The notes under the pieces were generated by a model that was given only the letters and a program-made list of their open reading frames with translations, was not told the origin of the DNA and made no database searches. A stretch of 64,000 nucleotides of DNA. Source: Amoebophrya sp. A120. Its lineage: Eukaryota; Protista; Dinoflagellata. The DNA lies in assembly GCA_905178155.1 (NCBI GenBank), contig CAJINV010000002.1, forward strand, positions 6,366,476 to 6,430,475, given 5' to 3'. The first letter of the stretch is position 1, and each line of letters opens with the position of its first letter. This document shows positions 9,301 through 35,900 of this stretch, in pieces. The translations under genes and the position numbers were made by a program.

Positions 9301-11887
9301 TCGGGGTGGTCGCAAGGGTTATTTTCAACCGGATACGCCTTATTTGGACGTTTTTTGCGGGTTTTTCCTACTGTGGAATATCTGCTACAACCACTGGACT
9401 GCCATGCGAACAAGCCCGGGCTACCCGCCGAAGTACAGTTGTTGGACAAAGAATGTGTTTTGATACGTTGACAACGTTGCGAATCTCCCGTTCGCGAAAA
9501 CGCGTAGTTTTGTGACATCAAGTTTGCTTTGGTCGTTTATCGGATGTTTTTTTGTTTTCCTACTTTTGTAATTTGTGCTCATTCAATGTCCATGCGTGCC
9601 AAAAAATGGAAATTCCAGGTACGATGTAAACAACGACGAGCTTTTTGAGATGCTTGGCAACAGCGCGCACATAGACGTGCCCCAGGACCTGGAGTCCGGG
9701 CAGGTATGAAAGTGCACAACTCCCCGCTCCGCCGCCTCACGTCAAGGGCATGAAGAGCAATAAGACAGCCACCAGCGAGCCAGCCCGTGCATGACAACAA
9801 GCGCATGCGCCTCCAGCACTGTTCGAGCTTCCGGAGGTTGTCATGCAAACAGTGCCAGAAGGCAGCAACTGGATTCGCGATTTGCATGACGAAGCAGGAT
9901 GCGGGAGGGGAATGAGTTGCGCCCTCGGATAGCAGCCGAAGGTGTGCCACAAGTGTGACAGGATAAAACCCGCCCGGGCTCACCACTGTTCGGTCTGTCG
10001 GCAGTGTGTGTTGAAAATATCAAAAGCAAAAATCCCCCCTCCCCATATCAAAACGAAGTTTCTGATGCTGGACTTGCGTTCACAAATCAGATTTGTGTTG
10101 CTGGAGAGGACTGCAGGCCGCTACCGAGCCTGGGGAGAGATGTGTTTGCCTAGACGCTTAGCATGAAAAACGTCCGCGCTGAAGGCCCAACAGGATGACA
10201 AACCGCCCGCATAATGCGCCGGAGCCTGTGGAGTTGCCCTGTTGCAACACAGATGCGATTTGTGGTCACAAATCAGCAACACAAATTTTCGAAAACGCAC
10301 CTTGTCAATATGGGGAGGGGGGATGTTTCATTTTGATAGAAAATGGACCATCACTGTCCCTGGATCAACAACTGTGTTGGTACGCTTTGGATCATTTTTC
10401 TCCTATTTTTTTTGCGAGTTGTAGTCTTTCTCCATCTGCACCAATCTGAAACAAGTATGTAGTGGGCAAAATCCGTTTTTTCGTAGTGATTTCAGCAGCT
10501 CGAAATCATGACGTCGAAGCTGTCTCTTGTTGTTCAAACATTTGTTGAACATGATGCGCAGGAGGGGGTACTGCTGCGAAAAGAACTTAGCTCCGAAAGA
10601 ACGGAATCCATTTCATCATCATGATCGTCCACCAGGTTTTGGGAATTATCAGTACTTTGTGCTGTTTCTCTTTTGGCTCTACGTCGGCGTGGTGTTTGTT
10701 CTGATCACCTGCTACGCTCAGTTTCTGGAGATTTTCTACCACCCCTCGCGGTCACGGCACCGCGATTTCAACCACCGCGAGTACGTGGGCTTCATGTACT
10801 ATCCAAGAAAAAAAGTGTGTAAGTGTAACTTTTGTCGAGGAACAGCATCACAGATTTGTTTTGCATGACAGAGAAAACCTGCCATGCGTAGCTAGTACGC
10901 GAAAACACGTTGGAAAATTGACAGGCGTAACTGCATTGCAATATCTGCAAGACAAAGTTACACTTACACAGTTTTTTCCTTGCATATGTACATTCTCTGC
11001 GCCTCCATCTGCCTCGCCCTGTCGTTGCTCGGAGGCTTTCACCTGTACCTCCTCCTGACCAACCAAACCACGATTGAGTTCCAGCTGAACTGGATCGAAA
11101 AGCACGAGGCCAAGAAGCGCAATATGCACTGCAAATATCATGTCGCGGTCTGGAAACTTGGGATGCTGGGGGTAGACGGACGAGGGCAACGCCGCTACTA
11201 GTAGCCCAGCATAGCAAGTTCGTGAGCTGGGAGGTTTTAGCTGTGGTCTTTTTTGCATGACTTACTGCCGGTCTGCACGAGGGTAGCGTGCATCTCAGCA
11301 AGCTTGGGAGTGAGTCATGCTCGCCGGGCGTGACAAGTTCTGCTCCTGCATGCTTCCAGACCGTGACATCTTTGCAATGAATACGCGACGAGCCGTGGCG
11401 AAACGTGTACGACCTCGGACCCGCGCTGAACTACAAGCAAGTGCTATCGTAGCTGTGAGTGGGGGATTAGGTGTCGTCCCGTTTTCGATTATTTGAACGC
11501 CACGAAATAAATCCAAATTGGTTCGCAATTATATTGCAAACGCTCCTCCTGTTTCTCGGTCATGCACAACGTCATAGCATGCGGATTTCGTACCTATAGG
11601 TCGTCTCTGCTCTTCCGCGGACAAAATGGACGAGCTGGAGGGCGGGGCCGGAAGAATCTCCAATGTGACAGCGCGAATCGAGGGCTTTATCGCATGACAA
11701 GCTTCCTACAAGGCTGCTTCTTATTTTCATAATCTAGGGATGGGACGACAACTCTCTAGAAGTTTTCTCAGGTCGATAAGCAATGGGCGAATCTTTGCTA
11801 CTCGGCTGCTTCCCCTGGCTGGGCCGACCGAAGAGACGAGTTGAAGAAGGGTTGAGTTTCCCGAAAACCACCCGGTTCCACGTCTGA
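6368..11887 (+). CDS. DHHC-type protein S-acyltransferase (palmitoyltransferase) with long Ser-rich N-terminus, multi-exon
   Basis: Spliced product contains [37 protein letters not shown], TM segments, TNQTTIEF and NVYDLG. At least 7 introners plus canonical intron 10380-10635. Exon boundaries at 9.0-9.7 kb are not fully resolved. Confidence 0.9.
7633..7894. mobile_element. Introner, family A
   Basis: TIR tatcaaatgtaaaaatgtctgggtctggaaga / tcttccagacccagacacttttgcatttgata; perfect DR agcaa; join SSDS|KSTLP. Confidence 0.92.
8448..8768. mobile_element. Introner, family B
   Basis: TIR tattgagaggaaaaatcccccctctccatat / atatggggagggggga...gata; DR tttcg; join CFDFVLRLLG. Confidence 0.9.
9705..9931. 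mobile_element. Introner, family C-like (forms a GT-AG intron)
   Basis: tatgaaagtgcacaactcccc...gagttgcgccctcggata; DR gcagg/gcagc; join ESGQPKVCHKC. Confidence 0.85.
10018..10338. mobile_element. Introner, family B (opposite orientation to 8448), inside the DHHC domain
   Basis: DR gaaaa; join [10 protein letters not shown]; interior corresponds to the reverse complement of the 8448 copy. Confidence 0.93.
10800..10986. mobile_element. Introner, family D
   Basis: TIR tatccaagaaaaaaagtgtgtaagtgtaacttt / aaagttacacttacacagttttttccttgcata; DR tgtac; join GFMYILC. Confidence 0.9.
11123..11383. mobile_element. Introner, family A-like
   Basis: tatgcactgcaaata..gtctggaa / ttccagaccgtgacatctttgcaatgaata; DR cgcaa/cgcga; join KKR(N)EPWRNVYDLG. 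Confidence 0.8.
11445..11778. mobile_element. Degenerate introner
   Basis: tatcg...cgata ends; DR agtgc/agcaa; removal gives NYKQVMGES in frame to the stop at 11887. Confidence 0.6.
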
Positions 11888-14687
11888 CGGGGCGCAATAT
11901 GTTGCTTCAATAGAAGTTGATAATTTGTATCGAAATGTCCGAGATCGTTCCTAAATTTATCTTACGATGATCCTTCCAGGCCTGTTCGTGCTGTGCGACC
12001 AAAGTTGTGCAAGGCCACAAAGAACCTGTTCGGTGTGATAGTCTGTACATCGACGAAAAAGTAGACTATCAATGCACATAAGTTAGCTGCTGGCAGCGAG
12101 AGTTTGCTTTTCCTGAAGATTCAAAATCGCGAGTACTCTTTTAATTGGTTTCAGCCCCCCCAATGTATCTAACTATCAAAAATCTTGTATCATCTGTCTC
12201 TCTAACTAGAACTGAGAAGACACAAAATGACTACTCACGTATGATGATGTACATTGCAATATCGGGCAGATTGATGTTCTTTTGCGTCTTCTTGCACCTC
12301 TTTCAACTACAGCTGTATGCGAGGCAGACGCAGACCCCGAAACCGAGTGGTGCACGCAAAAAATGGCTGGAAGTGATTGCTTCTTCTAAACGCGAGCATG
12401 CGTTTGGGCCACGAAGAATGAACTAGGCGTAGCCGTAGAATGACTCTACTTCCTCTTACGCCGAAATCAAAGCAGAATGTGGAAGACTTCCTTGCAGTTC
12501 TTACCAGAGCATGATGCCTACAAGTACGGGCGGTTGTTCGGGTCAATCACTTTATCTATCATGGTCTTTTGTTTTGGTGTATGGAGTTTTGGACCGCATT
12601 CCTCTTCTTGTTTACTTTTGATTGCTCGGCGACGAGGAAGCGCAGGCTCGATCGCACGGCACCTGGAACCAGAACCTTCGGGTATGACTAGCTGCTAGTT
12701 TCGCGCAAAATTAGAACCTCCTCAAGTAGATCTTTCGTCGTTTCGGATAATTGTAATTCTGATCGGGGACATGACGGAAGTAGAAGTACAACAGGAAAAA
12801 CTCATTCACGAGAGATTCAATTTCTCGAGTGAAGCGCTGACCGGCGAGAGTGAAGTTGGTTCCTGTGGTAGTCGTCTCAGAGAGTTCTTGTTTCAGCATT
12901 TCGAGCGTAAAGCCGAAGGTGTGCAGCTTACAACTCTGACGTTTCGTTTGCGTCGTATCGCAGCGAGTGTGTGGTGGAAAAGGACAAGGATGCTAATGTT
13001 TCAAGTCTGAATTACGCTTGTGGCCTTTGGTCAGAAAGCAAATCTCTCCTACAATGCACTGTAAAAAGCGGGGACCACAAGAACCGATTTCCGCGAAGAG
13101 CTGCTTATGATAGATTTCATCCCAGCGATATATTCACGGTATTAGCAACGAGCTGGTTTCTTTTCATCTTCGTTCGCGGAAAAAACGGAAATGTACTCTG
13201 AAAAATAACAACAACAATAAAATAGTGGAGCACTATCCTCGTAAAAAATGTTTCAAAAATTTATCGCCGCGGTCGACACTTTCTACGAGTGGTTGCTGCA
13301 GCCGATGGACCAGTGGGGGAGCAAAGCAAGACGGCCTCAGTAATATCTTTTTTTTTTGTTACGGGAAATTGATAAATGAAGTTCCATTTGAAACTTAGTT
13401 TCATCTATGCAAAATTCTAAAGTCACATTCATTCTCTTAACCAGCCGAGGGAATGGCACGGCGTTTGACGAAGCAGGCGGCGGAGCAGGACCCCCTGCAG
13501 GAGAAGGCGGGGGTGGCGGCGGGTTGATGGGGCTAGGGAGATGAAAATAGGTTTCTGATTTCTTGCAGGAGTGGGAGCCGAAGTAAAGAAGAACTCAAGA
13601 GAGGATAGAACATTCATTGCTACATGTCTTTTGGCTTTCAGTAATGGATTTTTCACACACAGAGAAAGACAAAGAGAAAAAGAGCGCATACCATAGGTCG
13701 AGAAGCTCATATTACACCCTTTTTTGTCTCCTGCATAGGCGATGTGTGGCGGTTTGTGCGAAGGAGGAGCGGGCACGACGGACGCCGGTGCCGGCGGCGG
13801 TGGGAAATGAGGGACGGTGTAGGGACACGAGCGAGAAAAAGTTTCTTTCGGTGGTGCTGTGTAGCAACAATGTAGACGCTATGAAAGCACAACGAACTGT
13901 AAAAATGTTTTAGAAAATGCTCCTGCAACTGCAAACAATAGAATGAGATACTGCAAAACAAAAAGAATGCTGTTGATACTAGAAGGTTGGTTGGCCTTCG
14001 GGTGTCCACCGGACTATTTTCGCGAGCGCGATATACATAGCACGTGCTAGTACAAAAAGCCACTCGAGGACGACCAGCACCAGAACTAATATGCAAGGTT
14101 TTTTGATGTCTAATGGCATCGACGAGGATATGCTTTTCAGCAAAACGACGTAGCCGCACTTTTATTATGATATTCGTAGAGTGTTCTTGCAGCTTGAGAA
14201 TACAACAGCGTTGAAAAGATGTTTCAGTCCAGCAACTTACTGCGTCTGAAGGAACAGATTGATTCCCCGCAGCGCGGCGGCCTGGGGTGTCAGCAGCTTG
14301 CTACCACCGACCTTCCTTCCGTGCTACCACCTGCCGAGATGAAATGTTGATAATCACAATTGAAATGAAGAAATGCGATGCGACTCACCTTGCCTTCAGA
14401 GCGTAGCTGTCCCGGGAAGTGGTCACTTCCATGTTGGTGTCCTCACATAGTGTTCTCTAGAAAAGGGGCAAAGAATGTTAACCTGGTAGGTTCAACAATG
14501 AGTGTGACGCAGGATCTGTTCGGGTCGGGGAAACACTCATGTAAGTGGTCCTAGTGCTTGGTGGTGGGCATCGCCCTTTATTTCGTAGGGAAAATTAGCG
14601 CAGCTTGGGAAGACATTTTGGGAGAGTGACGGTGTAACAAATTCTGATTTTGAGATCCGGTCGTTGTCTTAAGCTTAACTTGCGAAC

Positions 14688-18200: not shown

Positions 18201-21200
18201 ATTTCGACTTGCTGGCCAAGCAAGGCAATGGTGGCGGAGGAAGTGCTGACCACATCCTCGATCAGAACGACATCTCGTCGATCGCAAACGATCAGGATGG
18301 ACATGACATCATCTCGGATGGGAAAAACTTTCACACCGTCAGTAGCGAGTTTCTTGATTTCCAGAGCGGAGGCCTGGGCGCAGGGGATAAGGCGATGCTG
18401 GAGGGAATGTTTGGAAAAGGAACCGGGGGCAACACACTGACCGTTGACGGCATCTTGAGTTTTTGTGGCGATGGAATGGGGCAGCTCACGCAGGACACCC
18501 TCCGCGGTTGCGCGAATACGAACGGATTTCGGTTGGCCGACGATGGAGCCGGGCTGTTTGATTTGTTGCAAAAGGCCTTGGATACGACGCCGGGAGATGA
18601 CAGCATTCAGCGGGGGAGTACGGAAGCCTACAGCCTGGAGGCCCTCCAGCAGTTTTCCGATCAGCTGTCTACGAACGACGCGGAGACGGGCCCCGGCGAC
18701 ATCCTGACCGATGTTACGACGGAAAGCGCCACCGGTGCAGAGAGGGTGGTCGACCCCGACAAAATGGAGGACATCGCAAACACATTGGGGGACGGCGAGT
18801 CCCCAATCACCCAGAATGAGTGGGTTCTCGCGGGACACGGGTCTCCTGCGGACTTTAAGAAGCTAGCGGAAGGGGGCAGCGACCCGAATCTCATTGAGGG
18901 TAGAGCGGAGCTCACCGGTCACGAGATTTTCACTGTCAACGGCGAGGACCACACGTTGCAAAAAGAGGAAGTCTCGTACGATCTGGATGGCGAAGACGGC
19001 TCAAGCACCCCCGACGAGCAGGCCCTCGAAAAACTGATGACGACGGAGGACGGGCGCCCGAAGAAGCACTTGACGCTGACCGAGCTGCTCGCCATGTGTG
19101 AGGGCCAGCTGGACTCTGGTGCGCTGACCGCAGACGGTTTCAAAGACTGTGCTGCGGATCCCGATAACGGCGGGGGTACGCAGCTGACGGATGATCGGCT
19201 TTGGCACGTGATCGCGGGCCAGTTTGATACCGACGGAGACGGTCGAGTCACATCAGCGGACGGAAGAGCGGAGGGTAGCACTACGACGGTTTCCATCGCT
19301 GACATCAAAAACTCCGCACTGCAGTACGACGACCTCCATGATGAGTCGATCTCTCGTAGCGGCTCGAAGCACGTCGACGCCGACAAACTGAGAGACATCG
19401 CTGACCGGCTGGCGCCCGGCGGGGAGAGTGGCAGCGGCAGTAGCGGCGGCGAGGGAGGTGGAGCAGAAAGTGGTGAAGGCGAGGCAGTGGGTGGATCGAC
19501 GATCACGAAAAGCCAGTGGGTGCACACGCTGGGCCGCAAGGGGTCGGATTTCGACTTGCTTGCCCAGCAGGGTCAACATGGTAGTGGGGATGATGACCGC
19601 GTGATCGATCCCGGTGACTACGCGACTTCGGCGGCGGCAGCAGACGGGGGCGACACGACCACGCCTGTTGACAACGTAGTCCGAAATAACGGCAACTTGC
19701 AGGAGATCGATAGCCAGGTCGCAAATGCGAAGTTTCCAGGGTCCGACGGCGACGAGGATCTTGGAAGTGGGGGAAAGCTGCTGTTGCAGCAGATGTTTCT
19801 CGATGATGGCGAGGCGGGAGCGGGCAGCAAGAAGTTGACCGTGGCTGGCATCTATCACACCGAAAGTTACCACTTTGGCATGTGTCAACATCTAGTGCAA
19901 CATCAAACAAGACGATCTATCGTGTGTTTTTTGTTCGACCGATATAAGAGAGAGAGTTCTTCTCATTTTTAACAAATTATTACATACTGGATGGTGCAGA
20001 TCGACGAAGCTGTAACTTTGTTCTCTGTGATATCGTCGTTAGTGTATGCGAGTTGACAGCGGGCGACCCGATCACTGCGGCTGTGCTGAGTGACTGTGCA
20101 GAGAGCAAAGGCATCAACTTGTCTGACGCGGACCGCGATAAGCTATTCCAGCTGCTCAGTCACGCTCTGGATTCGACTCCCAAGGAAGACGGAGGGAGCA
20201 CGAGCATCGAATCTGCAGCGGACGAAAACACTGCGGCCTACGACCTGACAAGCTTGCAGCACTTTGCTAGCAGCGAACACGACAACAGCATCAACGTCCT
20301 GGATGCTGTCGTCAAGAACGATGGATCCGGGCGAGAAAATGTTGTTGACCCTGGGCAAGTTAGCAAGCTCGCGGGCTCAGTTGGGGACGGAAAATTCCCA
20401 ATCACCGAAAATGAATGGCGCTTCGCAGGGGGTGGCAGCCACGAGGATTTTGTCACGCTGAGCGGCGGCGAGGACGGCGAAATTACGGAGTCGGACGTTC
20501 CGGTCGCGGGCACGGCAGGTGCCGGCTCGGAAATAGTTTCCAGTGGCGGCAAATTGCGCGAAATCAGCACCGGCGACGTCGACTTTGACAAGGCGGATCT
20601 GGATTCGGACGATAAATTGATGCTGCAGCAGTTTGTGGGCGAAGACGGCAAGGTGGACTGGAGCTTAATCACTGGCTGGTGTCGGGACCAGCTGCCGCTG
20701 ACGGACGCAAGTCTCAAGAGGTGTGCGGAGAACATTAGCTTTCACCTGTCTGATGACTCTCAGTTGTTCAAGGTGCTCAGCGCCGCATTTGACACCACGC
20801 CCGGCGACACGGAGATCAACACCACGCCCGTGGACTACGACGTGATGGCGCACGTCGACGCGGATGGGGACAAGGTGGTGGAGCCGGGGGAAGTCGACAA
20901 GGTTGCCAAGGCACTGGGGGACGGGCACTTCCCGATTACCAGACAGGAATGGGTTGACGCGGGACACGGAAATCCGGCTGATTTCGACCTCATTGCGCGC
21001 CAAGGTGGGGGCAATGACGACGAAATTACGGCATCGGACATTCCCGCTGACCCGGGTGCGGCAGCGGGGGCTGACGCCGGTGACGCTTCTGCCGCTTCCT
21101 CGGGTGCGAGCGTACTGGTCGTGAACCACGGCAAGCTGCAGGAGGTCGATGGCGAAGATGTGCTGACCGGGGAAGGTCCGCACGAGAGGTCGGAAGTGTC

Positions 21201-23525
21201 TCACGGGCCCAGCGCGGTGCGGGTTCTCGCCGACGCAGCCGAGAAACACAAGGAGCCCTTGCTCGCCGGCGGAGTCTATGCATTGCAAATATGTTCTTGT
21301 CCCCTGAGTCTGCGAAGATAGATGTAAATTTGAGATGCTAGTAGGAGCTCGTCTGGGTGACAAAAAAAAGTCTGTCTTGCATAAAAAAACCGCAAAATTG
21401 TTCTTACTTACAACGCGGACGAGAGGGTATTTATCATGTAGGATCATAGGCAGGGAACCAAAGGTCTCGCATGTTTCCTGTCATGCTAAGGCGTGCACGC
21501 AAGACCTTGATGTTGCTCACACACAAGCTGCATGACAGACATCTATCTAGCTCCAGACCCAGACGCATTTGCATTTGATAGAGTCCTGCTGGGCGGCGTT
21601 GTGGGAGGCCGTGCTGTCGCAAAGAAGGTCCAACGCCAGCGACAGGAGCACGAGGAGGCGCTGCAGCGGCAGAATATCTAGTGCAAAAGTACTAGCGCAC
21701 CCGTACGAGGAATTGCACTTGTGCATAAGCAGAACTTTATACGCTTCACCTATTCTTGAGTTTTTCTGTTTGTCCTTGAAAAAAGGTGCGATGCAACGGC
21801 AATTCGTACTAGTAAGATCATATTGAAATACTTTTGCAATGCATAGAGAAGCGGCGCAAGCAAAGGATAGCCGCGGCGACCACGACTGAGGACCGCCAGA
21901 AGCCAAATTACCATGACAGGTCGGGAGAGGATGCAGAGCTTTTGGCGACCTCCTCCGGGGCGGAGCTGGATATCCAAAACCACGGGGGGCACCTATCATA
22001 TGTAAAAACGTCCCCGCCCCATAGTCAAGTTGGGAAATTAGCAAGACAAATCCAGACGTTTTGGGAGCCACGCATCACAAGTTGCTGTCCGTAGTGTAGT
22101 GCATGTTAGCAAGGACAACCGCATCACAAATCCATCTGCTTATCCTGTTTCAAGCATTACAAATTCCAAAAAGCGATTGGAAATGCCTCTCATGGAGATG
22201 CGCATTACAAATCTTCCTGTGATCGCAAATCTGCATGACAACTATGGGGTGGGGACGTTTTTACTCAGGATAGCCCCGGGGGAGCTCGTTTCTGCAGACG
22301 GGGGACTTGCCTTCCGCCGGAAAGAAACGCCGTAGCGAGGACGAGGAAGCACTGGGAGGACAGAGGGCGAACCGCACCGACGTGCTGCAAGTGAGAGATG
22401 AAAATGGTGGACACCCGAAGAAGTTGTCTTATCAGAATGTTGCCCACGACCTGACGTCCCCATATTCAAACGGATATTTATTGCGTAGCATTTGTGATAA
22501 CGCGAAGCTGGCGAGGGAAACAAATAGCCCCGCTTAGAGCACGACAGGAAGCAGCATGACGGATTGTCCGCAAAAGAGGCCGCGTGCGCGTCTTTCCCTT
22601 CTAGCGGTTCAAGGCGACTTTGTAAATGCGAATCGAGCATTTTTGTAACGCTTCTTTTGAGTATGGGGAGGGGCGATCTTTCCGCACAACATGTCTCCGA
22701 GATCAGCGGTAACTAAGGAGCGCACTGCTGATGATGATGACGATACGCGAAAAGACAGTCCCTTATCCATTGCGAGTCTGTCTGGGTCGGGCAGTTTGTG
22801 TTGCTGATACTTGCCTTGCAGAATGGCTGCATGCACGGCATTGCAGCATCGGAAGTTTTGCGAGGCTCCTGGCAAATTCATTTGTACTCCCTGAAAAAAA
22901 CGCATGACAACAAAGTCCGTTCGAGCACTAGGAAGAAACTGGTCACTCCTATCCAAGCATCACAGATCTTGGCGTCCTGCAAATTTCGCATTGCAGATCC
23001 AGACCCAGACATATTTGCAATGCATGTCGTCGGGGCCGGTACAATTTGCGTGGAACGGCGAAGCAAGCCGGAAAGTGGAGTAGTAGCGTGTCGTCGACTA
23101 CTAGAATAGAAGACGTCGACGAGGACCAGGTGGGGCTCAGCAACAAGGGCGACGATGTCATCCCTTCGGACACGATTCACCGCAAGAAGCGTCTGCGCGG
23201 AACCGCGACCGGTGCGAAGATGGAGTGGATGAAAGAGGAGGTGCCAAACGAAAGAAGCGCTCCGGGGGCAGCTTTGAAGAGAACGGTCGATGGCTTCGTC
23301 AATGCAGGCAAAGAGGTAGCTGCGCGCTTGCGCCACTCAATTTCAAATATAATCAGAAGCTCACTCTCGAATTTTCCTGCAGAAAAATTTTTTCGTGCAG
23401 GAAACTTTTCCTTCATTGTACCAACGTCTATTTTTCTCTCGCTTGTATTGATATTTTTGTTTTTCAGTTTGATGCTAGTCCTAAAAAATCCTCACCGTGC
23501 TCACGGTGCAAAGCCCTCATCTTAG
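15282..23525 (+). CDS. Large Asp/Gly-rich repeat protein with EF-hand-like loops and hydrophobic segments (probable Ca-binding surface/secreted protein), multi-exon
   Basis: Repeated PIT(K/Q/E/R)xEW..GG and DTDGDGRVT/DADGDKVV motifs. ORFs 15282, 16158, 17234, 20053, 21834, 22307 and 23046 are linked by 9 introners. Apparent frameshifts at 17.0-17.25 kb. Confidence 0.7.
15929..16202. mobile_element. Introner, family A-like
   Basis: tatcaactgcaaatatgtct / agacatatttgcatgtgata; DR attac; join WPITKEEW. Confidence 0.88.
16317..16589. mobile_element. Introner, family A-like
   Basis: tattcatggcaaata..gtctgggtc / gacccaggc..tttgcatttgata; DR aagaa; join EIKEEDW. Confidence 0.82.
16651..16997. mobile_element. 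Introner, family E (reverse orientation, degenerate)
   Basis: tattctgcgtaaaaacg / cgttttcacacaggata; DR poorly conserved (acaga/cggaa). Confidence 0.65.
17624..19573 (+). repeat. About 600-bp near-identical intragenic duplication (17624-18225 vs 18965-19573)
   Basis: EEVSYDLDG...SDFDLLA block repeated almost verbatim at DNA level. Confidence 0.92.
19853..20032. mobile_element. Introner, family F (single copy in this window)
   Basis: tatcacaccgaaagttac / gtaactttgttctctgtgata; DR gcatc/tcgtc; join LTVAGIVSVCE matches the paralogous repeat LTVDGILSFCG. Confidence 0.75.
21277..21580. mobile_element. Introner, family A-like
   Basis: tatgcattgcaaatatg / ccagacccagacgcatttgcatttgata; DR gagtc; join GGVLLGG. 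Confidence 0.85.
21675..21845. mobile_element. Introner, family G
   Basis: tatctagtgcaaaagta / tacttttgcaatgcata; DR cagaa/gagaa; join QRQKRRK. Confidence 0.8.
21994..22272. mobile_element. Introner, family E
   Basis: tatcatatgtaaaaacgtccccgccccatag / ctatggggtggggacgtttttactcaggata; DR gcacc/gcccc. Confidence 0.88.
22430..22691. mobile_element. Degenerate introner, family B-like
   Basis: tatc start, tccccatat / gtatgggga core, DR tgtct; join KKLSPRS. Confidence 0.7.
22764..23026. mobile_element. Introner, family A-like
   Basis: tatccattgcg..gtctgggtc / gacccagacatatttgcaatgcatg; DR tccct/tcgtc; frame restored into ORF 23046. Confidence 0.7.
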
Positions 23526-24539
23526 GGATAAAAGCATGTGGCTCACGGTGCAAAGAATAAGAAAAAATGTTTCAATTTTCGTTTTCAATTGTACATACTT
23601 AAGTGGATGTGGCAGAGAAAAAAAGGAGAGGGACGCACCAAAAAACACGCTCATGCTGCGCTTGGCACACTTGTATATTCTATGAACGTCATCAAGCTGA
23701 AGAAGAACCCTTTTTCTGTCGTCCGTAGTTTGGAGCAAATGCGTAAAAACAGGTACCGAATGTTGCGGGTCGGAGCAACAGAGATTGCCCACGCTTTCTA
23801 CTGTTTTGCCTTACTGTGCCGTTCCGTGTCGTCTGAGTCGATTGTTCTCAAGTAAACCGTGCTTGCAAACTCTTTGCGTGAGTAGACCAGGCAGCACACG
23901 TACGCAGCTAGTCTCCGTGCTACGTTATGTGCCAAAGCATGCGAGCAGAGGTGCGATCTTGTGAAACAAAGAAAAAAAGCCCGAGTCGTTTTTTTTTTTC
24001 AAATAAAGCGCTTGCAGTATCTGGGCGAGAAAAAAGAAGGCCGCTGAACGGAAGCAGGTGCGTGGTAGACGCCAGCTGGAGTATACGTATCAGAATGGTG
24101 CTTTTCTGCTCGAACAGTTTCAGTGCACAAATTTGAATAAACTAGTTTTACATAGTTTTTGATTTTCTGGGAAGCGCAAAACCGGAGTGACAGTCTCTGG
24201 AGAGAGGTGGAAATGCCGCCTGCCCTGTCCGTCGAATACTCCCAAAAAAGCGCAGCAGCGGCCAAATTATAATTCAGTAAAATTTGAAAAATTTGAAATA
24301 AGTATAATTCCTTACGCAGTCGCAGCACCATGCTACAAGGAATAGAAATAGAAAAAGAAATACAATTACACCCGACAGCTCGCCGGTAAAACTGAGTGTA
24401 AAATTGAACATTGCGTTCTTTCTTTGTTCCGTCCAGAAATTCGCATTTATGAGGCGCGGACGTCGAAAGCTGCAGTTTCATTAAGAACCTGCGTGCCGGA
24501 ACGAAGGAAGACGACCCCCTAAATAAAACCGACGTGATC

Positions 24540-27500
24540 ATGGCGATTATCATGTCGACTGCCGCGCCTGCGGCTCCCACTGATGATGTGAAAGAGGGTG
24601 GTATAATGGTCAAAGGGCCAGCGGAGTCGCAGTTAGCCGCGTTCGTCGTTCCTCCATTACCCGTTCGGAAAAATCCACGCCCCCCCGTTTGATGCTCGAA
24701 TACTTGATAAATCGGAGGAAATTATACTACAGAAACTGAAACTCGTCCCCGTCGTGTCCAACGTGTACTGGCATCATTTCGCTGCATTTACTAGACCAAA
24801 GCCAAACTGTTGCCATGAAAGATAAGCTGTGACTTTGCCTCCTTCTTGCAAGACAGATTTGCAGTGGTCACAAGATAAAATCAGCAGCGTAAGACAGCGA
24901 CAGCCTCCGCCTCTTTCCAAGGCACATGTGTGTGTGGGGGGGCGGGGGTTTTTGCTGGCGATGTGCGTCCTACAATGCAAGCTCAGAAGAGCTGGAAAAA
25001 GTAGAAGAGATGAGAAAGCTGCTGGGGGCGAAACAGTTGAGGTCTCTCCCGGGTGGAGCTACGGGGGAGATGTGTGTTCGCTTCTTACGCGCACGGGCAG
25101 GGAACGTGGAAAAGGTACTACAGACTACTTATGTACTAGACATAGACTCAAATTCGCCTAGCAAGTATGGTTGTTTTTCGGTAAAATAAGTGAGTTTCAG
25201 TAAGTGTGTAGCAAGTATGGTTATGTAAGTGTGTAGCAACTAAAACTATGCTTGTTTTTCGGTAAGTTTCATGTCACATGACCCATAGAAGACGAGCATT
25301 CTGATATGATCAAAATAAGGCCACTGACATGCTCGAGAAGCACCTTGACTGGGTCGCGAAGTGGAGACCGTTGGAAATCCGGCAGAGCGAGATAGATGTG
25401 CCGTTGCAGGCGGGTTCCATGTGTATGTTCGGGGTAAACAAGTACGGAAATCCAGTGATGTACGGTGCGAGCCGAGCGCTATCCAAGAAATAAGCGCTAG
25501 CACAATCACGACATTCGCGCAATTTTTTCGCAGCACAAAAAGTATAAAGTTCTGTATACGTTGTTGCGGAAAAATGCATCACAGTGGATGAGTGACTTCT
25601 CTACTTAGTGTTTCTACAAGACAAATTACCAATTTCTGATGCAAGAATTGCAAGAGTGTCATTGTGATGAGTTTTTTCTTTCGCATAAGCGTGGAACCCG
25701 CACCAGTACTCGCTCGAGACGTGCATCAAGTTCATGTCCTACTACCTCGCGCTACGATAGTGGACAACTCCCCCTCTGCCTCTATCAATTGCTATGTAAA
25801 GCACCAGGTCCATTTGATTCGCATTTGCTAGCACCTTTTGGCAGACTGTTTGCATGACAAACTGCAAAAGTACAAACAGTACTACTGTATAGCGCTTGAA
25901 GAATTTTTTGCGATGCAGAAGCGTACAGTTCTACTGCCTTCTGTGTTGCAGGAGCTGCTCATGCCATGACAAAGAGCGGGGGAGTTGTCTACTACCATAC
26001 GTGCACACCGAACGTCTCTGCGAGCGGACCGACGCAAACCAGTTCGTGCTAGTTTTCGACGTCAGCTACTGGGCCCTCTGGCACGGCTATCGTGAGAAAA
26101 AAGTGTTACAGCTAATACACAATCTATTGCAAGACAAGCAAGATAGACAACCTCTATCATGCCGGAAATGCTTGTCAGCTTCATTTTATGCGTGTTTCCA
26201 ATTTTAATCTACGCACTTTTAGTTACTGGTTTTCTCTGCCATGCAGAGCATGTTTGTGTTGCTGAAATTCCAAGACATAATGTGTAACTGTAACAGTTTT
26301 TTCCTTTGATGACGGCAAGTATCTCAGTTACTCGACGCAGCTGGTACAAGCTACTACCTATTTTTGGAAAGTCATGGGGCGGTTCATCACGAATCTAGTT
26401 TAAATGAATGCCCATGTTTTAGTAGCAGAAGCTTCATCCATTTCTGAATTCTTCATCTCGAAGATCGCTCTATTGAGATGAAGATGCTTTTTGACAGGAT
26501 GATGAGAAAAATGTCGCAAGAAACATAGCGGGGAGCATGGTAACACTTACTACACTATGCATTGCAAATATGTCTGGGTCTCCTGGAAGAAGGCAAGATT
26601 TCCAATGCTGGGCTAGCAGAACATTGGTGTGACACATGTTGCGCGACAGTGCTGCTCGTTTCTGATGCGCAAACACGATTTCTCATGCGGAGAAGGCAAG
26701 ATAGAGCCTTTCGATAACTTGTGATGCATAGCTTCGCGATGACACGTGCGTGTGCCTGCTATCCGCATGATAGCATGGCAACTTTGCAGACCCAGACACA
26801 TCTGCAGTGGATAAGGACATACTTATTTCCAGATGAAGATCCTCCAAGACCAGTTTCCGGAGCGTATGAAACGGAAAACGCCCCCTCATCTTCCGGAAAT
26901 TGCATAAAAGAGCATTACCAACAAGCGGAGGCTCTTTCATAAGTATACTTAGCTAGCAGCTTTGTCACGACAGCTGAAACAAAAAGTGTCAAAATTTAGT
27001 TCCTGTGCGAGAGGGGGCTCGGTTTTCACGTTGATAGAGTGCTTGCGGCAGGCTTTTGTGATCAACGCGCCCGCGTTGCTATCATAAAGAAAACCCCACG
27101 GGGACTAGCGAGATGAATTAGTCACATTTGGTGCTGAAATGATAATGATTGTACGCGAACTATGGATGTCTTGTACTTGTTCCAGCAGAGCACACAAGAG
27201 GGAATCGAGATTTTGCATTTATGTAAAACCTATTTACAAATGTGATTTCTTCGTACGCTAGCTGTTCTCTGCAGGATACTTGTTCCAGGGCTTTTTTCGT
27301 CTCTGCAAATCAATGATAGACAAGAAGACCGTGGACAAAATAAAATTTCTGTCCATCCCGAAGGGCACGAACTTCGCCGCCGATATGAAAACGTCCACCA
27401 GCTCCACTGCAGACAAGAGCTCGTCCTCGTCTTCCAAGACAACATTTATGCTTCGCAAATAAAGTAGTATCGTAGTCGCGGGCGGAGTTTTGTTTTACGA

Positions 27501-28810
27501 AGTGCTGACATGTAGTTCTTGTCATGCAAAAATATTGCAATTTCAATTTGTCCGTAAAAAGTTGTACGATACAACCTTTGATGCACAAGTTCATACAGTC
27601 CGTGCCAACGTCCTCACCTTCTTCGACCGCCAGCACGAAGGCCACCAGCGGCAGCACGCCCTCGCCCCCGGCGATCGCCGCCACTACGATAGGCCTGTCT
27701 AACAGCATGGACATATGCATCGGAAATAGAGATGTCATCTGGGTGAACCGAATTTGTGGTGCGAAACTTGGCTTCGACAGAGATCTGTCATCCGGAATTT
27801 CGCAAATTCTGTTTATGGAAAGAAATGCGGTTAAACTGAAAGTTTCTGTTTATGGAAGAGAAACTTCTACATAATTTGATGCGACGAAGCTGCATGTCGT
27901 GCGAGGACTCCCTCGCTTGAAATCAGGCCTGGATTGCAAGAAGACAAATTATCATCTTTCTAGACCCAGAAGTCTATTTCCTTGCGGTTGATAGTGTAGC
28001 ACTCCGGACAACACCCCGACCACTGGCACAGACGTTGCCAGTGCCGCGAAGGGCGCCGCGACCTCTTCGGGCACGACCACAGCCTCTTCGGGCACGTCGA
28101 CTAGTACGAAGACAACAGAAAATAAAATCCCCTCACCAGAAGAACTTCCACCCGCGCGCTATTTTAGGGACCTGACGAAAGTAGCCGACTTTTCGAAGCT
28201 AGAGTTCCACCCGAAACCCAGAACCCAGCCAAACACGCCCACGGCAACGCCGAAAGTAGCGGGGGATAAGGGTAGCAAAGGACAGCAACAGACAAATTCG
28301 ACTTCTTCTACTGCAGCATCAGGGGCTGCTTTTGCGAATAGCAATACGTCAACGCCTGCCTCGGGGATGAGCGCCAAGTTTGCGCAGTTTCTGGACCTGG
28401 TGCCGATGGAAATTTTACCGGTTTACTATGTATCAAATGCAAATTCATATGTCTTGGGCTCCTGGAATAATAGCTCCATGCTTGTGATGCTGAATGCTGC
28501 GGGATTGAAGTGTGACAAAGTTATTTTTCTAGTGCGCTTTGTTCTCGCGCGTGGTGCGCTGGACAAGCCGCGACTTTTTGTAGGCGTAGGGTGCCGGACA
28601 AGCGAACATGACAAGAGAGCGGCGCTGCTGTTGCTTAGGCAATACATATTTTTAGGTATCATGCGAAATATTTCTAGAGTTCAACATATTTGCAATTCAT
28701 AGTACGGGGGCACCGTTCCAGCGGACCAGGTGTTAGTACCGAATTTGCCGGACGAAGAAAATTTGAAAAACTCCGGGCCGTGGAAGCACAGCTACAGAAA
28801 CCAGGACTAG
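24540..28810 (+). CDS. Sec14/CRAL-TRIO lipid-binding protein, multi-exon
   Basis: Reconstructed motifs VRFLRARAGNVEKATDMLEKHLDW, FVLVFDV, KILQDQFPERLRQAFVINAPALFQGFF, TVDKIKFL and ILPVYYGG. Canonical introns 25115-25319 and 26344-26832 plus 9 exon-splitting introners. Confidence 0.85.
24658..24963. mobile_element. Degenerate introner, family B-like
   Basis: ggaaaaatcc..cccccc / gggggg..ggtttt core; DR tccat/tgcgt; join VVPPSYNA. Confidence 0.6.
25480..25687. mobile_element. Introner, family D-like
   Basis: tatccaagaaa / tttctttcgcata; DR agcgc/agcgt; join SRAWNPH. Confidence 0.78.
25753..25999. mobile_element. Introner, family C-like
   Basis: tacgatagtggacaactccccc / gggggagttgtctactaccata; DR cgcgc/cgtgc; join YYLAHTERLC. 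Confidence 0.78.
26088..26311. mobile_element. Introner, family D-like
   Basis: tatcgtgagaaaaaagtgttacag / ctgtaacagttttttcctttgatg; DR acggc; join LWHGKYL. Confidence 0.8.
26556..26813. mobile_element. Family A-like element inside canonical intron 26344-26832
   Basis: tatgcattgcaaatatgtctgggtct / agacccagacacatctgcagtggata; DR decayed. Confidence 0.75.
26865..27036. mobile_element. Introner (unassigned family)
   Basis: tatgaaacggaaaacgccccctc / gagggggctcggttttcacgttgata; DR gagcg/gagtg; join FPERL. Confidence 0.82.
27080..27278. mobile_element. Degenerate introner
   Basis: tatcataaagaaaac / gttctctgcaggata; DR gttgc/cttgt; join INAPALFQG. Confidence 0.75.
27447..27595. mobile_element. 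Degenerate introner, family G-like
   Basis: tatg..gtatcgta / tacgatac..cata; DR decayed; frame restored. Confidence 0.55.
27714..27993. mobile_element. Degenerate introner, family A-like
   Basis: tatgc..ggaaataga..tctgggt / acccaga..tctatttcc..gata; join SMDSTPD. Confidence 0.65.
28431..28701. mobile_element. Introner, family A-like
   Basis: tatcaaatgcaaat / atttgcaattcata; DR ctatg/gtacg; join LPVYYGGT. Confidence 0.8.
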
Positions 28811-29990
28811 CGGTTGAAATAGAGAAAAGGCAAAACACTGCAAAAAAACATGTGTTGCGTCGGTGGCTTTATTGAAATTTTAAATTCAGCATCTTTTATT
28901 TTAGAAGCGCTGTGCAGGTGCAGCTGATTTTGGATTTGGTTTCATGACTGCTTTGAAGCACATCGAGATGACAAGAAGAACGCAAACAGCTCTCCGTTTC
29001 GACAAGTCTACGTGAAAATATGAAGCAGAAACGAATGATCACAAACCTGCAACAAGGACCAGGGCCCGCAGCGCTTCGTGGAGCCTTGAACAGGGAAACA
29101 GCACGAAATAGTTCGCTACAACAGGCTTAGGATCCCACATTCATGGTTGCGCATATTTATCAGAACCGATGAGATTTTCGCGTGTGTGTACTTAATTTCT
29201 TTTCTCCTACTACACCCCCCCCTGGGAATGGCAAAACGTGGTCGTAGTTGCGTGCAGTGCGCGTCTTGTGAGGATCCTGTTCCTGTGTAGCATTGACAGC
29301 AGGCGGCTTCTCTAAAATGTTGCGTAAGAAAGTAGTCAAAAACTTATGTGTAAAAGTCGTGGATGTCCTCATCGTTGTCGTGGGGTCAGGATGAATTCCG
29401 TTTCTGACAGCACTATCTGATCGTCGAGTTTCCAGCTTCCCGTCGCATGAAGAAACCTCATATAATCAACATCAATCGTCATCTAGTACATCATCGCACG
29501 ACGTGCATAATTTTACATTCCCTATACTCTATACTGCACTTGGCTCCTTATCGTGTCGTCGCGAGCTCACTACCCTTCCCACATGATCAAAGTAGACAAA
29601 AAACTATACCACACGGACGAGCTAATGGTTCGGAATTTTAAGATGAAGTGTACAGAAGCAACAGAAACTCCAGTCCGTCTTTACAGGGGAGGTGCAGCTT
29701 CTTTTTTTGTGCAGCTCATAATTGGAGAAAACGTCTGACTTCGTAGGAATTTTTAAAGAAAGTCCCTACATGGAGTAAAAAGCAAACCAGCCATGCCTTG
29801 GGCGAATGCTGTCTACGTTCTTCATGCAGTTGGAACCCACCTTCGCGTGCGCGTCAAAAACGAGCATCCACCGGGGACGAGTGCCTAAGAGCCACGAGAC
29901 AACCACAGTAGCGGGGGTTCTACTAGGTGGCTGTGTCTCTGTGTTTCACCAACGGTAGAAGTTCTTCGGAGCCTCGTTTTATCAACAAAG

Positions 29991-32900
29991 ATGTCCTCCG
30001 AGCTGAGCAGCAGGACACAACAAGGCCCTGGAACGGCCGAAGAGCAGGTCATCGACATGCTCGAGGAACAGGACCTGGTGTCGGAGGAAGTGAAGGCCTG
30101 CGTTTTCTGCAAAAAAGTGTTTCAGCCCGGGGAGTCCTTCTGCTCAGTACTGCACAATGGCGTCGCGCAGAATTTTCACCTTGGCTGCTTCCGCTGCTGC
30201 CGCTGCCGAGTGGGGATCGGAAGAGGTACATTGAAGGTTTAGGGTTTTGGGACGCCTATTTATGGCGCTTTGCGTTGTATTTTGTTTGTCTGAACAACAA
30301 CAAACTGAAAGATGATTGCACATGAAGATGACACAAGCCGAGCTGAAGCAGTTCGTATCGGGGAGAAGTAAATGATTGAAGATGCAGGATGCAAATATAG
30401 AACTAGAAGCAACTATGTATAATTAGAAGCACAATTTCATCTTCTCCACCCAACAGGTTCGTACCACGTACTGCCTTCCATGGACGATGCTGAGGAGAAG
30501 ATGCCATCGTCTGCCACCCCAGATGGAGCAGTTGTCAGCAAGGCTAAGGCACCCAGCGCGGCATCACAAAAAGCTTTCACGTATCCCACAGAAAAAAGCT
30601 GGCTGCAGGGCATATTTGTAATGCAAAAATAAATACACAGAAAAACCTGTCATGGGCGGCCTCATAGCATGCTGTTTAGCATACGCAATACAGATTTTTT
30701 TGTGTATTTATTTTTGCATTACAAATGTGACCTGCCAGCTTTTTTCTGTGGGATATCACAGACATGAAGTTTTTGTGCAAGTCGTGTGTGCCGCGGTGCC
30801 CGGCGTGCATGGACCCCTTGCTCGGCGCACTCACGTGCTTCACGATCAACGAGCTTCTGGGCGAAATCAAGTTGCACAGCGAGTGCTTCCGCTGTTTTCT
30901 GTGCCTGAACAAGATCGCGAAGTCGTACACCAAGGTGGACTTCGCGAAGTGCACCAACGTCGCGCGGAAACAGATCGAAGCGAATCTGCAGCAGGATATC
31001 GGCCTGGAGCGGTTGCGGGAAAAGATGTGGCGTTCGGAGTTTTTCAAGGACCAGTCCTCCTCCAACGAGGGTGGCGCCTTGGTCGCGAGCGCGAAACAGG
31101 ACGCGCGGAAGGCGATTATTTGCGAGCTGTGCGTCCCGCACGTGTACCCCAAGAAGCAGTGCTACTTTTGCCTGGAAGAAATCCTCCACGATATGACCAA
31201 GGGGGTCCGCAGCATGCGCATCGACAAGGCCATGGACTGTTTCCGCTTAGAGGATTACCACGAACAGCAGCAGCTACAGCTGCTGCAACAGAGGCGGCAA
31301 CTGTCGAGGAAAGTGGGTTTCTCAGGTCGTGGACGAGCAGGTGACCACGGAGTAGAAGCCGAAGAAGTAGGTGGAAGACCTGCAGAAGGAACAGCAGCAG
31401 GAGCAGCGGAAGAAGAGCAGGAGCTTTTGTTGTGCACGCCCACGGAGCAGCAGACAGAGACACGTCGAACAAGCCAAAATCACTTCCAAGCCGCATTAGG
31501 CGATTTAGAATCGGAATCACACTCGTTTACGGTGGTTTCGGCACGACAATCGCAGTCCCCCTTGCCGGCTTTCGGGCCAGAGTGGGAAAAGCTAGAAGTG
31601 CAAGAGCAAGTATGACATTGATGTAGCTCATCTATAGATAATTGACCTTTGTTGTTGTTTGATGTAGTCGGTTCGTTCCGGTTGTACATACTTCGCTCGC
31701 ACACGTGCAGAGTTCTGAAGCGTTTATATTGTTTCACGTCACAACATAGCACTTTTAGAAGCTAAATACCAAGAACTTTTCGTAACTTTTCAGATCACGA
31801 CACCGACGGTTCCGGCTGCGAATGTGGATGTCGATAAAGATTATGCAGCTGCTGGAACAACAAGTACAAGCACGAGCAGCAGACCGAGACTGGACGCGCA
31901 GCCCGCACATCTCACGGACGACGCGCTTCTACAAAACTTCACAATCCGACGGGAAGATCTGAAAAGCAAGCGGAAGCCTGAGATGGCGACGGTCTTTTTT
32001 CACGGACACTGCTTCAAGTGCGTCCAGTGCGACAACGAAATTGTGAATTCCAAGAAGTTTCTGCAGATGGGTCGCTACGAGTTTCTCTGTTCCGACTGCT
32101 TCCCGACCTGCGTGCGCTGTAAGGAGACGCTGGTGGGGGAAAAGAGCTGCACCATCCCGCTTGGTGTTGTTCCTACGAGCAGTTCGCTGGTGACTTCTTC
32201 TGGTCCACTGCAACAGGCTCTCGCTCTTCCCGCAGGTGGGTCGTCAGGAGAAAATGTCAACAATAAGTCTACTGCATCTGCGTCCCTTCAGCAGCACAGC
32301 ATCATTCTGCACCAGCGTTGTTTCTGCTGCGACTTGTGTCAGAAGCAGATCGACAGCGAGGAGACCTCCACAGGTAACAACATCAACTCCGGCCATTTCA
32401 CGTTCGACAGCAGTTACTTTGAGGATAGCCCCGCCGCGAGGGAGTTCTATCGGAAATGGAACATCAGCAAGCAGAGCAGGACAAAAGCAAATGATACAAG
32501 TTATCCAGCAAATAACCGTACACTTCCGGACGGGGAGACGACCGTGGCGTGTCCCAGCTGCTACAAAGGGTTGATGCAGGAGAAGGAAAAGTTCGTCTGC
32601 GATTTTCTGATGGAGGAGGAGTTCAAGAAGAGGCGGAAGCTGGAAGAGAAAAACGGCATCTTCCAGTGGGACGAAAGGTTGCTCAAGCCCGATTGCACAC
32701 ACGCCTTGCGCCAAATACTGGAGTTTGAGGAAAGCAGTGGTTCTTTTACCAAGACCAGTACGATGAAAAGCAACCAGGCTGCTCATGCATCGGTTCTTGC
32801 TGGCGTCGACGAAACAAATAATCACCTCAAGCTGCTTCTCGAACAGGTCTTTCACGACCAAGAACGGGAAGCAGAAGTGGGAAAAATGGCTCAGCCTACT

Positions 32901-35900
32901 GTGCACCAGCCGAAAAGGTTTTGCGTTTTTTACGAGGAGGCAATACCAGGAGCCCGAAAGGAAAGAATATCCCTCGTGCCGATAAAACAAAACCCACCTT
33001 TGGAGGCGCAGACGAACAGCGGAGTAAAAGATCCTGCTGACCCGTTTACTTTCTCAACATCCTCCTCCGGATCATCGGATTTGTACAGCGTGAATTTGCA
33101 GTATTTCTTCCTCTCCTTGAAGATGCTGAGGGAAAACCACGAACCCTTCTTCAGTCTGGATCCGGCCGACCCCACCGATTTGATGGGGAAACTGCAGAAA
33201 AAGCGTTTCCACCCCGAGTGGCTGGCGGACACGCTGATGGGCGAGGTTTTGTTCCAGGCCGATTACTTCCTGAAACAGTTCTCTTTCGGCGAAATCACGA
33301 ACAGCAGCACTGCCAGTGCGGAGCAGCGGAAGCACAGCTACAAAATTCCGCTCCTGCCACCGGAGCTCTTTAAGGGCAGTCCCGTCCTGAAGAGCAGAGA
33401 AATGGGAGGAACCGGAATAACAATAAACAAGAAGAGCGGAAACAATAATAGAGAAGATCCCCAGATGAAGCTGCAAGAAGATGTGAACGCCGAGGCTGCC
33501 AGCTCATCGTCCTCTACTGCGAGTCGCCAGTGGTTCGTGCTAGACGAGGCACAAGTCGTGCAGGTCGCGCGCCCAGAGGAGATCACCGAGGAAGAGGCGG
33601 AAAATATGCTGAAAGAAGCATCGAAAAGAACCAAAGAACTCTATCGAGAAAGCAACGCAGCGAATAAAACGAAGGACATATCCTAAGTAAAAATGTCCCC
33701 ACACCAGAGTCAAGATGGGAAATCCGCTAGACAAATCAGCCACTTTTGGTTGTTTCGCATGACAAGTCTGTCCTCGTATTGTAATCCTGTTTAGCTAGTT
33801 CCGAAGCATCACAGATCCAGTTTATCATGCTGATTTGAGCATAACAAATCTCACAAAACCACTAGAAAACGCTTCCGATGGGGCTCCGCATGAGAAACAA
33901 TTTCAGCAAGCAGATTTGTATTGCAACTATGGGGTGGGGACGTTTTTACATTGGATAGAACCAAGAACCTTCCGCTTCCTCCGGCTTCCTCCTCGTGCCG
34001 CGGGTGCGACTGCGCGTGGAGGCGCGACGGCTGACGCGAGACCCGGAGACCAATACGTACAAGGATGCGAAGTTCACGTCTTCGAAGGACCCGGCGGTGC
34101 TGCAGGCGAAGTTTTTCACGGAAAAGTTTCCGCAGATTGCGGCGAAGGTGCCGGTATCCTGTGCAAAAGTATCGTACTCGTATAAATGCAAGTCTTGCAT
34201 TGCAAATCTTTTTATGATAGCAAATCCGCATGACAAATTCCATTTCTCATGCTAAGGAAATTTGTATTGCAATAGCAATTTATACTAGTAGGTACGATAC
34301 TTTTGCACTTCATAGCCGGTCGTGGCGGAGTTGATCGAGGTGGCCCGGGCCCTGACGCTGGCGAAGTGGATTCTGGAGAAGAAATATGAGAGTGCACAAC
34401 TCCCCCTCCCCCTCATTTGTGTTGCATGAACAGCAACACAAGCGCTGGCAAAGATGCAGCTTTTGCATCACAAATTCTGAGAGGACTGTGGTGCTGTTTT
34501 GGATTCCAGAATTTGTCATGCAAACAGTGTTAACAGGCAAGGGGTGGATTGGGAATTTTGCATGACAAATGAGGGGGAGGGGGAGTTGTGCACTCTCATA
34601 AGAAAGAATTTCAAATCGTAAACGGCGAAAAGCTGGACCTGCTCGCGCCGCAGCGGGTGTCGACGCGGATGAAATTTCCGAAAAGTGTCGTTGTGGAGGG
34701 CAGTGCTGGTTCTTTTGTCTCGGCGGGCGGAGTTGTCGGGAGGGACGAGAACATGATGAAGTTGAAGCCTGGGAGGTCCACCTTTTCGACGCGAAACAGT
34801 AAGGGAAATCAGGCGAGGAACAAGACTAAGGCTCTGCAAGACGTCGACCGGCTCTACCTGCACAGAGAGCATGAAAAATCAAATTCTGGCGCTTTCGAAG
34901 GAAGACGTGTGGCGAACACGGTGAGAAACGATAGCTTGGTGTTCGAGGACGAAGAAGATCAGACAGGTCCACCTGAAAAAGTAACAGCCCCGGAAGATTT
35001 TGCCCTTGGACGAAAAGCAAGGAACGGCGAATCCGAGGAACAGCGACCTCCTCCTGGGGAAAAAAACAACAAGTCTGCTGCTGTGATCAGCCGAGAAAGT
35101 TTGCAACTGTTGAAAGCTACCGATCATTTGTCTAGGCCAGGAGAACAAGAACCAGTGGCGGCTGTGTCTAATAGAAGTTGTACTCAACCAGCAGGAGTGC
35201 TGGAGCAAGTCCAGGGAGATCTTTCCAAAGACGGTAGTATCATCTTCCCTCCGCCCCAGCAGCAGCGTCTATCCGCAGACCAGAGGACCGTCAATCCACC
35301 TAGCACCCCGGGCGCGGGCTCGACCACCGCTACCAACCAGGACGATGGGGGGAATACCACCAACCTGGAAGACGGAGGAGCGACCTACGAAGGCGCGACT
35401 AGCGGCACCGAGTCCACCGTGAGCGGAGTTGTCCATCATCCCAGCAGCTGCTCAACGAATGCGGATATCATGAACAAAATCAACAGCATCACAACCAACG
35501 ACTTTCGCGTCCCGCATTCTGACAATTCAGCGGCTTGTCCCTCGGCAAACAGAAGTCGAAACAAGAAATCCTCGTCCCCCACCTCAAGAAGTAGGAGAAA
35601 AGCCGCTGTTGAGAAAAAAGCGGCTTTATCCCCCGCCCGCGCGGAAATAAACAACGAGTTCCGACCCGCGACCACCATGAGTGCCGGATCCTCGAGTATC
35701 CATTCAAATAGCTCCTCAGCGCCGCAGCTACCCCCCCGGACCCTGGGCTTCACGGCGGAGAGTATGGCCAATTTGGTTTTGGGGGCGGACAGAGGAGGTG
35801 TAACAACAACGGGTGTCAACGTGACACCAGGAGGAATACTTGCGTCACCATCCTCAAATGCAATGAATTCCTCCCCTCGGAGGCGACGCGAAACGATCAG

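Follow-up and report, generated by a model that had tools for sequence, protein, structure and literature searches.

Fixed cut register of transposon-derived non-canonical introns in Amoebophrya sp. A120

The genome of Amoebophrya sp. A120 has been reported to contain 29,850 repeated introns, whose borders were left unknown and whose splicing was left unexplained in the searchable text of that study (Farhat 2021, PMC7789003). Introns of this class were analysed here in a 64,000-nt stretch of the A120 genome (assembly GCA_905178155.1, contig CAJINV010000002.1, positions 6,366,476 to 6,430,475, forward strand), hereafter the window, whose sequence is eukaryotic and intron-rich, and in particular in a gene for a CRAL-TRIO (Sec14-like) protein at window positions 24540..28810. 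Each intron consists of an inserted element with TAT...ATA ends and one copy's worth of the 5-nt direct repeat (N1 to N5) that flanks it. The intron is N5-TAT...ATA-N1N2N3N4, with one cut lying a single base upstream of the element and the other four bases downstream of it. The element class is known; apparently new is the fixed register, where borders had been called variable or unknown. No published statement of this −1/+4 register was found in the openly searchable text of papers, figures excluded.

The A120 introners of Farhat 2021 begin with TAT, about seven loose bases and an A run, have repeats of 3-5 nt and are removed at non-GT-AG ends. The elements in the window resemble them, with TAT, seven looser bases and an A run at their ends. 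In the published description the ends lack a clear signature, the splice sites vary and the border is left unknown, whereas here the cuts were fixed at −1/+4, the repeat was 5 nt and the T at intron position +2 was invariant. The inverted repeat, the border repeats, removal at non-GT-AG sites and the organization in repeated families were all found; the variable sites were not, which is a correction of the published description rather than a ground for excluding these elements from the class. In Table S4 of the same study (PMC7789003), the nine commonest non-canonical A120 motifs all begin N-T (GT, CT, AT, TT) and vary at the 3' end; T at the second base throughout agrees at genome scale with an invariant +2 T. 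In strain A25, all nine of the commonest motifs begin with TT and the repeats with TTA. This suggests that the +2 T rule holds there too, with the cut falling on the first base of the element. The published description recurs in a 2024 review, and in the 19 of 58 rows consulted of a data set from 2025, A120 families have mixed ends and duplication lengths of 2-5.

The nonconventional introns of Euglena (Nomura 2025, PMC12501133) share with these elements an origin like that of MITEs (miniature transposable elements bounded by inverted repeats), sliding repeats that obscure the border, an inverted motif at the termini, cuts set off from that motif by fixed spacers, and coexistence with GT-AG introns. 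Their code was defined from introns that do not slide, the same logic as used here. It reads N3-CDG...CHG-N5-6|R, in contrast to N1-TAT...ATA-N4 here, so that the spacers are 3 and 5-6 nt versus 1 and 4 nt. Euglena also belongs to an unrelated lineage, its code was tested by knock-in, and its exons start with a purine. Here the conserved base is U at +2, and the first exon base showed no purine preference (A 82, G 81, C 74, T 61; purine in 163 of 298 oriented elements, described below).

Introns of Fritillaria borealis (PMC11282704, PMC13326754) share the transposon origin, inverted repeats, target duplications and, on the reading favoured below, removal by a spliceosome with changed end recognition. 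They mostly have AG-AC or AG-AT ends, with divergent U2AF copies reading the 3' end, whereas here the 3' dinucleotide is free and the oriented elements showed no AG-AC/AG-AT preference. Introners of Micromonas, Aureococcus and core dinoflagellates (PMC9860276, PMC11282704) likewise arise from transposons and are removed with one copy of the duplication. Because these introners bring along or co-opt G[TC] and AG, they depend on particular targets; among the 298 elements here, just 20 can be read in that way, whichever register is taken. Amoebophrya is not mentioned in the searchable text of Nomura 2025 (PMC12501133) or of the diplonemid and tunicate papers.

Cut register at transcript junctions

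A strict scan of the window for TAT...ATA pairs with a flanking 5-nt repeat gave 27 elements, and relaxed scans combined with reading gave a working list of about 50. A preliminary description of the locus had placed the cut between repeat positions 4 and 5 before any RNA data were consulted, using conserved protein residues at five elements whose two repeat copies differ. All five mismatched repeats were located in the window sequence on the plus strand: AGTGC/AGCAA at element 11445-11778, GCATC/TCGTC at 19853-20032, AGCGC/AGCGT at 25480-25687, GAGCG/GAGTG at 26865-27036 and GTTGC/CTTGT at 27080-27278.

The register was examined in four transcript-type contig sets (X1-X4; one sample, classed as RNA by guess) and one DNA-like run (X5). 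For 9500-29499 (X1, X4), 15 of the 27 joints were listed, 13 at elements and two at canonical introns. For 24700-34150 (X1, X2, X3, X5), 15 of 32 were listed: ten at elements (five of them new), three at canonical introns, and two that occurred solely in X5, inside elements. All listed element joints were taken, giving 18 distinct junctions. The transcript-type contigs behaved as mRNA, skipping five GT-AG introns, and two of them had a poly(A) end at 29039. X5 ran continuous and unspliced across the stretch and contained none of the listed transcript joints.

At all 18 junctions the element plus exactly 5 nt was skipped. With k as the number of upstream-copy repeat bases retained, k = 0 to 5 was compatible with 5, 6, 7, 11, 18 and 10 junctions, respectively. 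Thus k = 4 fitted all 18 and the next best cut 11; seven junctions excluded k ≤ 3 and eight excluded k = 5. Two junctions, 11443>11783 and 22762>23031, allowed k = 4 only. The probability of such agreement under a uniform cut is 10^-6.1. Five degenerate elements (the right end of 11445, 13534, 22430, 24658 and 27447) were delimited after the joint had been seen; among the 13 delimited before, k = 4 alone remained, with five excluding k < 4 and five excluding k = 5. At k = 4 none of the 18 introns was GT..AG. Excision of the element with 5 nt restores the coding sequence that preceded the insertion, whatever the target.

The host gene (plus strand) encodes a protein of approximately 490 amino acids and has 11 introns, nine of the element type and two canonical. 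It remains an open frame when spliced at position 4 and has a poly(A) loose end at 29039. One of its exons is 100% identical to a public protein (P0001, assigned to A120 by its source) that carries CRAL_TRIO domains (PF00650, E=1.9e-24); the peptides FPERL and NAPALF lie inside the matched domain (residues 119-245). The element intron at 26864..27040 (GT..GT; element 26865-27036) produces FPERL, and its joint 26863>27041 (X1-X4) allows k = 4-5, so that position 4 comes from the upstream copy as had been proposed. NAPALF is produced by the intron at 27079..27282 (CT..TG; element 27080-27278; joint 27075>27280, k = 1-4) and RAWNP by that at 25479..25691 (CT..CG; element 25480-25687; joint 25474>25688, k = 0-4), which agrees with the claim that both favour position 5 from the downstream copy. 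The alternative readings PECL, ALLQ and RARNP, which cDNA across these joints could have contained, fall in the excluded registers and were not read. The further claim that KQV (11445) and AGI (19853) need upstream positions 1-4 held in part: the protein requires positions 1-3 and not position 4, which the RNA fixes at 11445, while at 19853 a contig piece starting at 20036 allows k = 3-5.

Five of the other element introns had joints that bear on the register: 24657..24967 (TT..CG; element 24658-24963 with degenerate ends TAC/ATG; joint 24656>24968, k = 4-5), 25752..26003 (CT..TG; element 25753-25999, starting TAC; joint 25750>26003, k = 3-5), 27446..27599 (TT..GT; element 27447-27595; joint 27444>27599, k = 3-4), 27713..27997 (AT..GT; element 27714-27993; joint 27712>27998, k = 4-5) and 28430..28705 (GT..AC; element 28431-28701; joint 28429>28706, k = 4-5). 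The ninth, at 26087..26315 (CT..GG; element 26088-26311, ending ATG), has a perfect repeat and is uninformative. The canonical GT-AG introns at 25115..25319 and 26344..26832 were both defined by transcript joints. Nested within the latter lies an element (26556-26813) with a decayed repeat, in which two of five bases still match, as expected if its own splicing is unneeded. The public model of P0001 reads through 28430-28705, which the contigs splice, giving a different C-terminus. A rule N|T...ATA-N4 would permit exact annotation of A120 genes that carry such elements.

Conserved bases and the mechanism of removal

The window was supplemented with 133 overlapping loci of a public assembly that carries the same element families (L001-L133; 823,643 bases). 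A detector treating both strands alike (80-600 nt; a single departure from TAT/ATA tolerated) made no false calls per 64 kb in three simulated sequences, recovered 34 of the 50 window elements and found 572 distinct elements in total. An open, codon-like frame across the element oriented 298 of them (153 plus, 145 minus; 19 from the window), and 274 were set aside; orientation calls agreed within loci in 246 of 251 cases. The direct repeats of 233 of the 298 were perfect.

The T at +2 was altered in none of the 298 oriented, exonic elements, whereas its mirror position at the 3' end had changed in nine (Fisher p=0.0037). The asymmetry was also 0 versus 9 in the loci alone and was stable over eight threshold settings. 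Among the set-aside, non-exonic-looking elements oriented by locus, some of which are possibly mis-oriented, the 5' T was altered in 5 of 154 (p=0.004). Introns began with GT (86), AT (83), CT (73) or TT (56), and all 16 end dinucleotides were present, with AG in 22 versus 27.6 expected and hence no enrichment. The RNA junctions had T at +2 and A at +3 in all 18 cases, a pyrimidine at +4 in 17, and A-Y-R-N4 at the 3' end in all 18. The preliminary description was therefore right that the element's first T always supplies +2, with all four starts occurring, and that the 3' dinucleotide is free with the cut 4 nt past ATA. A U2-type combination of a GT/GC start and an AG end does not describe these introns, in which U at +2 nevertheless stands in a donor-like context (298/298 and 18/18). 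Donors of the five canonical introns in these contigs were GTAC, GTAA, GTAC, GTAC and GTAT. No drift to canonical ends was seen, neither at the start (+1 to G in 10 elements versus 5 away, p=0.30) nor at the 3' end (−1 to G in 4 versus 7, −2 to A in 2 versus 3).

The preliminary description had suggested splicing defined by a ruler or by structure rather than by AG recognition. The absence of AG recognition and the ruler stood; definition by structure was not supported. According to folding models, which may underestimate long-range pairs, the arms of young copies pair with a mean of 0.6-0.9 at most positions (40 sampled elements). Among the 18 spliced elements, in-register TAT:ATA pairing was predicted above 0.5 in seven and arm pairing in 11, and six had a mean arm pairing of 0.15 or less with the register unchanged. 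The register was also unchanged in 13534, whose inner stem is displaced by about 3 nt; 22430, with its perfect repeat, tests the removed length only. G-U and A-C arm mismatches were equally frequent on the sense strand (183 vs 186), giving no sign of selection for RNA pairing, and folding of a single element by itself gave no greater stability than that of shuffled sequences (z=-1.29). A structural role in defining the cut is thus weakened rather than excluded, and the ruler seems to be anchored on the terminal triplets as sequence.

In canonical splicing U+2 contacts U6, and G+1 pairs with G−1 in the second step. We hypothesize that the introns are probably, if with real reservation, removed by a spliceosome with a relaxed need for U1, a donor N-U-A-Y, a 3' cut 4 nt past the terminal A-Y-R and no check for AG. 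Such a modified spliceosome would use the N-U-A-Y start of the element as its donor, and distance from the terminal A-Y-R would set the 3' cut. The catalyst would be a U2/U5/U6 spliceosome that lacks U1 or has a divergent one, the candidate branch point would be the terminal triplet's first A (−7), and arm pairing may help young copies to join their ends without being the feature measured. We favour this reading because the sole invariant base is U+2 of a motif equal to the local canonical donor without the G. A further reason is that U2, U4, U6 and almost every spliceosomal protein are reported as present and U1 as undetected (Farhat 2021, PMC7789003). By comparison, AT5 and the K. veneficum parasite, in which a U1 has been detected (PMC12005148), are relatives with GT-AG introns only. 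In addition, neither a symmetric hairpin cutter nor a DNA transposase would account for the +2 T asymmetry, which favours the donor reading.

Several observations weigh against it. A at −7, found in all 18 RNA junctions and in 295 of 298 oriented elements, is not absolute: three differ, versus ten at the mirror base (p=0.09, exonic set; 1 versus 10 among set-aside elements). No further branch-site asymmetry was found at positions 4-18 of the exonic set. Only one of five canonical introns has A at −7, so that element and canonical introns lack one common 3' rule. Nonconventional introns of Euglena, which are built alike, are reported to be released as circles, and non-spliceosomal factors are proposed for their removal (PMC12501133). 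Finally, the contigs drop minor isoforms and represent a single sample and plus-strand genes only.

The same fixed register could be produced by a dedicated, non-spliceosomal endonuclease-ligase, or by a second machine such as has been proposed for Euglena, cutting 1 and 4 nt from paired triplets. We regard this main rival as less likely than not, although the anatomy is that of Euglena, where set spacers around an inverted motif are required, the arms of most sampled young copies are predicted to pair, and a hybrid signal is absent (GT..AG in only 6 of 298). Such a cutter is difficult to reconcile with the spliced elements predicted to lack TAT:ATA or arm pairing, with the equal mismatch classes, and with conservation specifically of the +2 U within a donor-like NUAY. 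Self-splicing of the elements as ribozymes would suit their structured, palindromic form; it is scarcely credible given that no Rfam match was found in the window, that interiors differ between families, with lengths of ~140-330 nt, and that decayed copies are still spliced.

The register itself could be questioned in two ways. A cut anywhere in the repeat, with the apparent register due to chance, would accord with Farhat 2021 (PMC7789003), which describes the position of splice sites as varying with respect to the hairpin, and with the GT, GC, GA, AT and other ends mixed within A120 families in the rows of the 2025 data set; minor isoforms are moreover invisible in contigs, and an RNA-free codon-score test on 65 mismatched elements did not single out cut 4 (scores for cuts 0-5 of 3.6, 9.5, 13.8, 12.3, 13.8 and 17.5; stops only at cuts 0-1). 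The concurrence of all 18 junctions makes this very unlikely, and mixed published ends would be expected from alignments sliding over perfect repeats. Removal from the DNA, by excision like that of internal eliminated sequences (IES) or through empty alleles mirrored in the contigs, draws on the contigs being classed as RNA by guess; it is most improbable and largely refuted by the skipped GT-AG introns, the poly(A) ends and the lack of the listed joints in X5.

A further-reaching version of the spliceosomal reading is offered tentatively: a spliceosome without U1, G+1 or AG would read the U+2 donor and a terminal-A branch point and count to the second cut, A25 using the same machine with a different element. 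The count of 1 + 4 matches the length of the 5-nt target duplication, so that insertions at any site and in either orientation would be erased perfectly. Such erasure would account for the way in which tens of thousands of transposons turned into harmless introns. The fixed rule would also show either that the G+1/G−1 pairing, regarded as central to the second splicing step, is dispensable, or else that a Euglena-like ruler arose independently in alveolates. The fixed register makes the mechanism directly testable for a very large intron class.

The elements and neighbouring genes

The elements are short non-autonomous DNA transposons with TAT...ATA ends and a 5-nt target duplication. Among 318 elements of the window and loci picked by their inverted ends alone, the repeat was 5 nt and perfect in 254, 4 nt in three and 6 nt in none. 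Lengths were approximately 140 to 330 nt (5th-95th percentile) and interiors varied among families. Like MITEs, the elements have terminal inverted repeats, a constant target duplication, small size and no coding capacity. At least 136 stretches of the public assembly carry the same families, which are thus repeated across the genome. In the approximately 0.9 Mb searched for an autonomous element or transposase, the loci contained five long candidates; three that were examined were separate elements bracketing host sequence. Other long candidates gave no Pfam match.

Two long elements with cargo were observed in the window, at 39104-40406 (1.3 kb) and 60672-62660 (2.0 kb, with an A run near 61722); seven of their open reading frames (ORFs) gave no Pfam match. 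Over 879 nt, the segment 39530-40408 shares 95% identity with locus L065. A different, intergenic element at 55188-56467 has 65-nt inverted arms (91% complementary) and a GC-rich interior of 1150 nt, in which the single ORF tested gave no Pfam match. Motifs like GCATGACAA occur in many copies and both orientations in element interiors (e.g. window 38792-39044) and are possibly transposase or splicing-factor sites. In locus L048 (~10390-10670), an insertion lies in the 5' arm just past TATG, and the start GTATG resembles a canonical donor. Insertion phases 0, 1 and 2 of the oriented elements at the true register numbered 137, 83 and 78 (p=2e-5), an excess between codons for which target preference and selection are alternatives.

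Element introns were also present in neighbouring genes on the plus strand. In a DHHC-like gene (10638-11800), two exons of which match PF01529 weakly and under its cut-off, the intron 11444..11782 (CT..CA) is one whose joint, 11443>11783, does not slide; 11122..11387 (AT..CG) has joint 11121>11388 (k = 4-5). At 13533..13741 (CT..CG), where the 5' arm begins with TAG and falls short of the 3' arm by about 3 nt, the register is kept. The intron 19852..20036 (CT..GT; element 19853-20032) has a predicted register. A protein that is long, repetitive within and has weak EF-hand matches is encoded at 17144-21270. At 22763..23030 (TT..GT) the element ends ATG and joint 22762>23031 does not slide. Further introns were found at 30581..30759 (GT..AC; joint 30576>30756, k = 0-4) and 33678..33961 (AT..AC; joint 33675>33960, k = 2-4). 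Domain matches also indicated a weakly supported LIM-like gene (31719-33683) and a JmjC domain gene (3527-5647; PF08007, E=3e-15). All genes examined in the window were on the plus strand.

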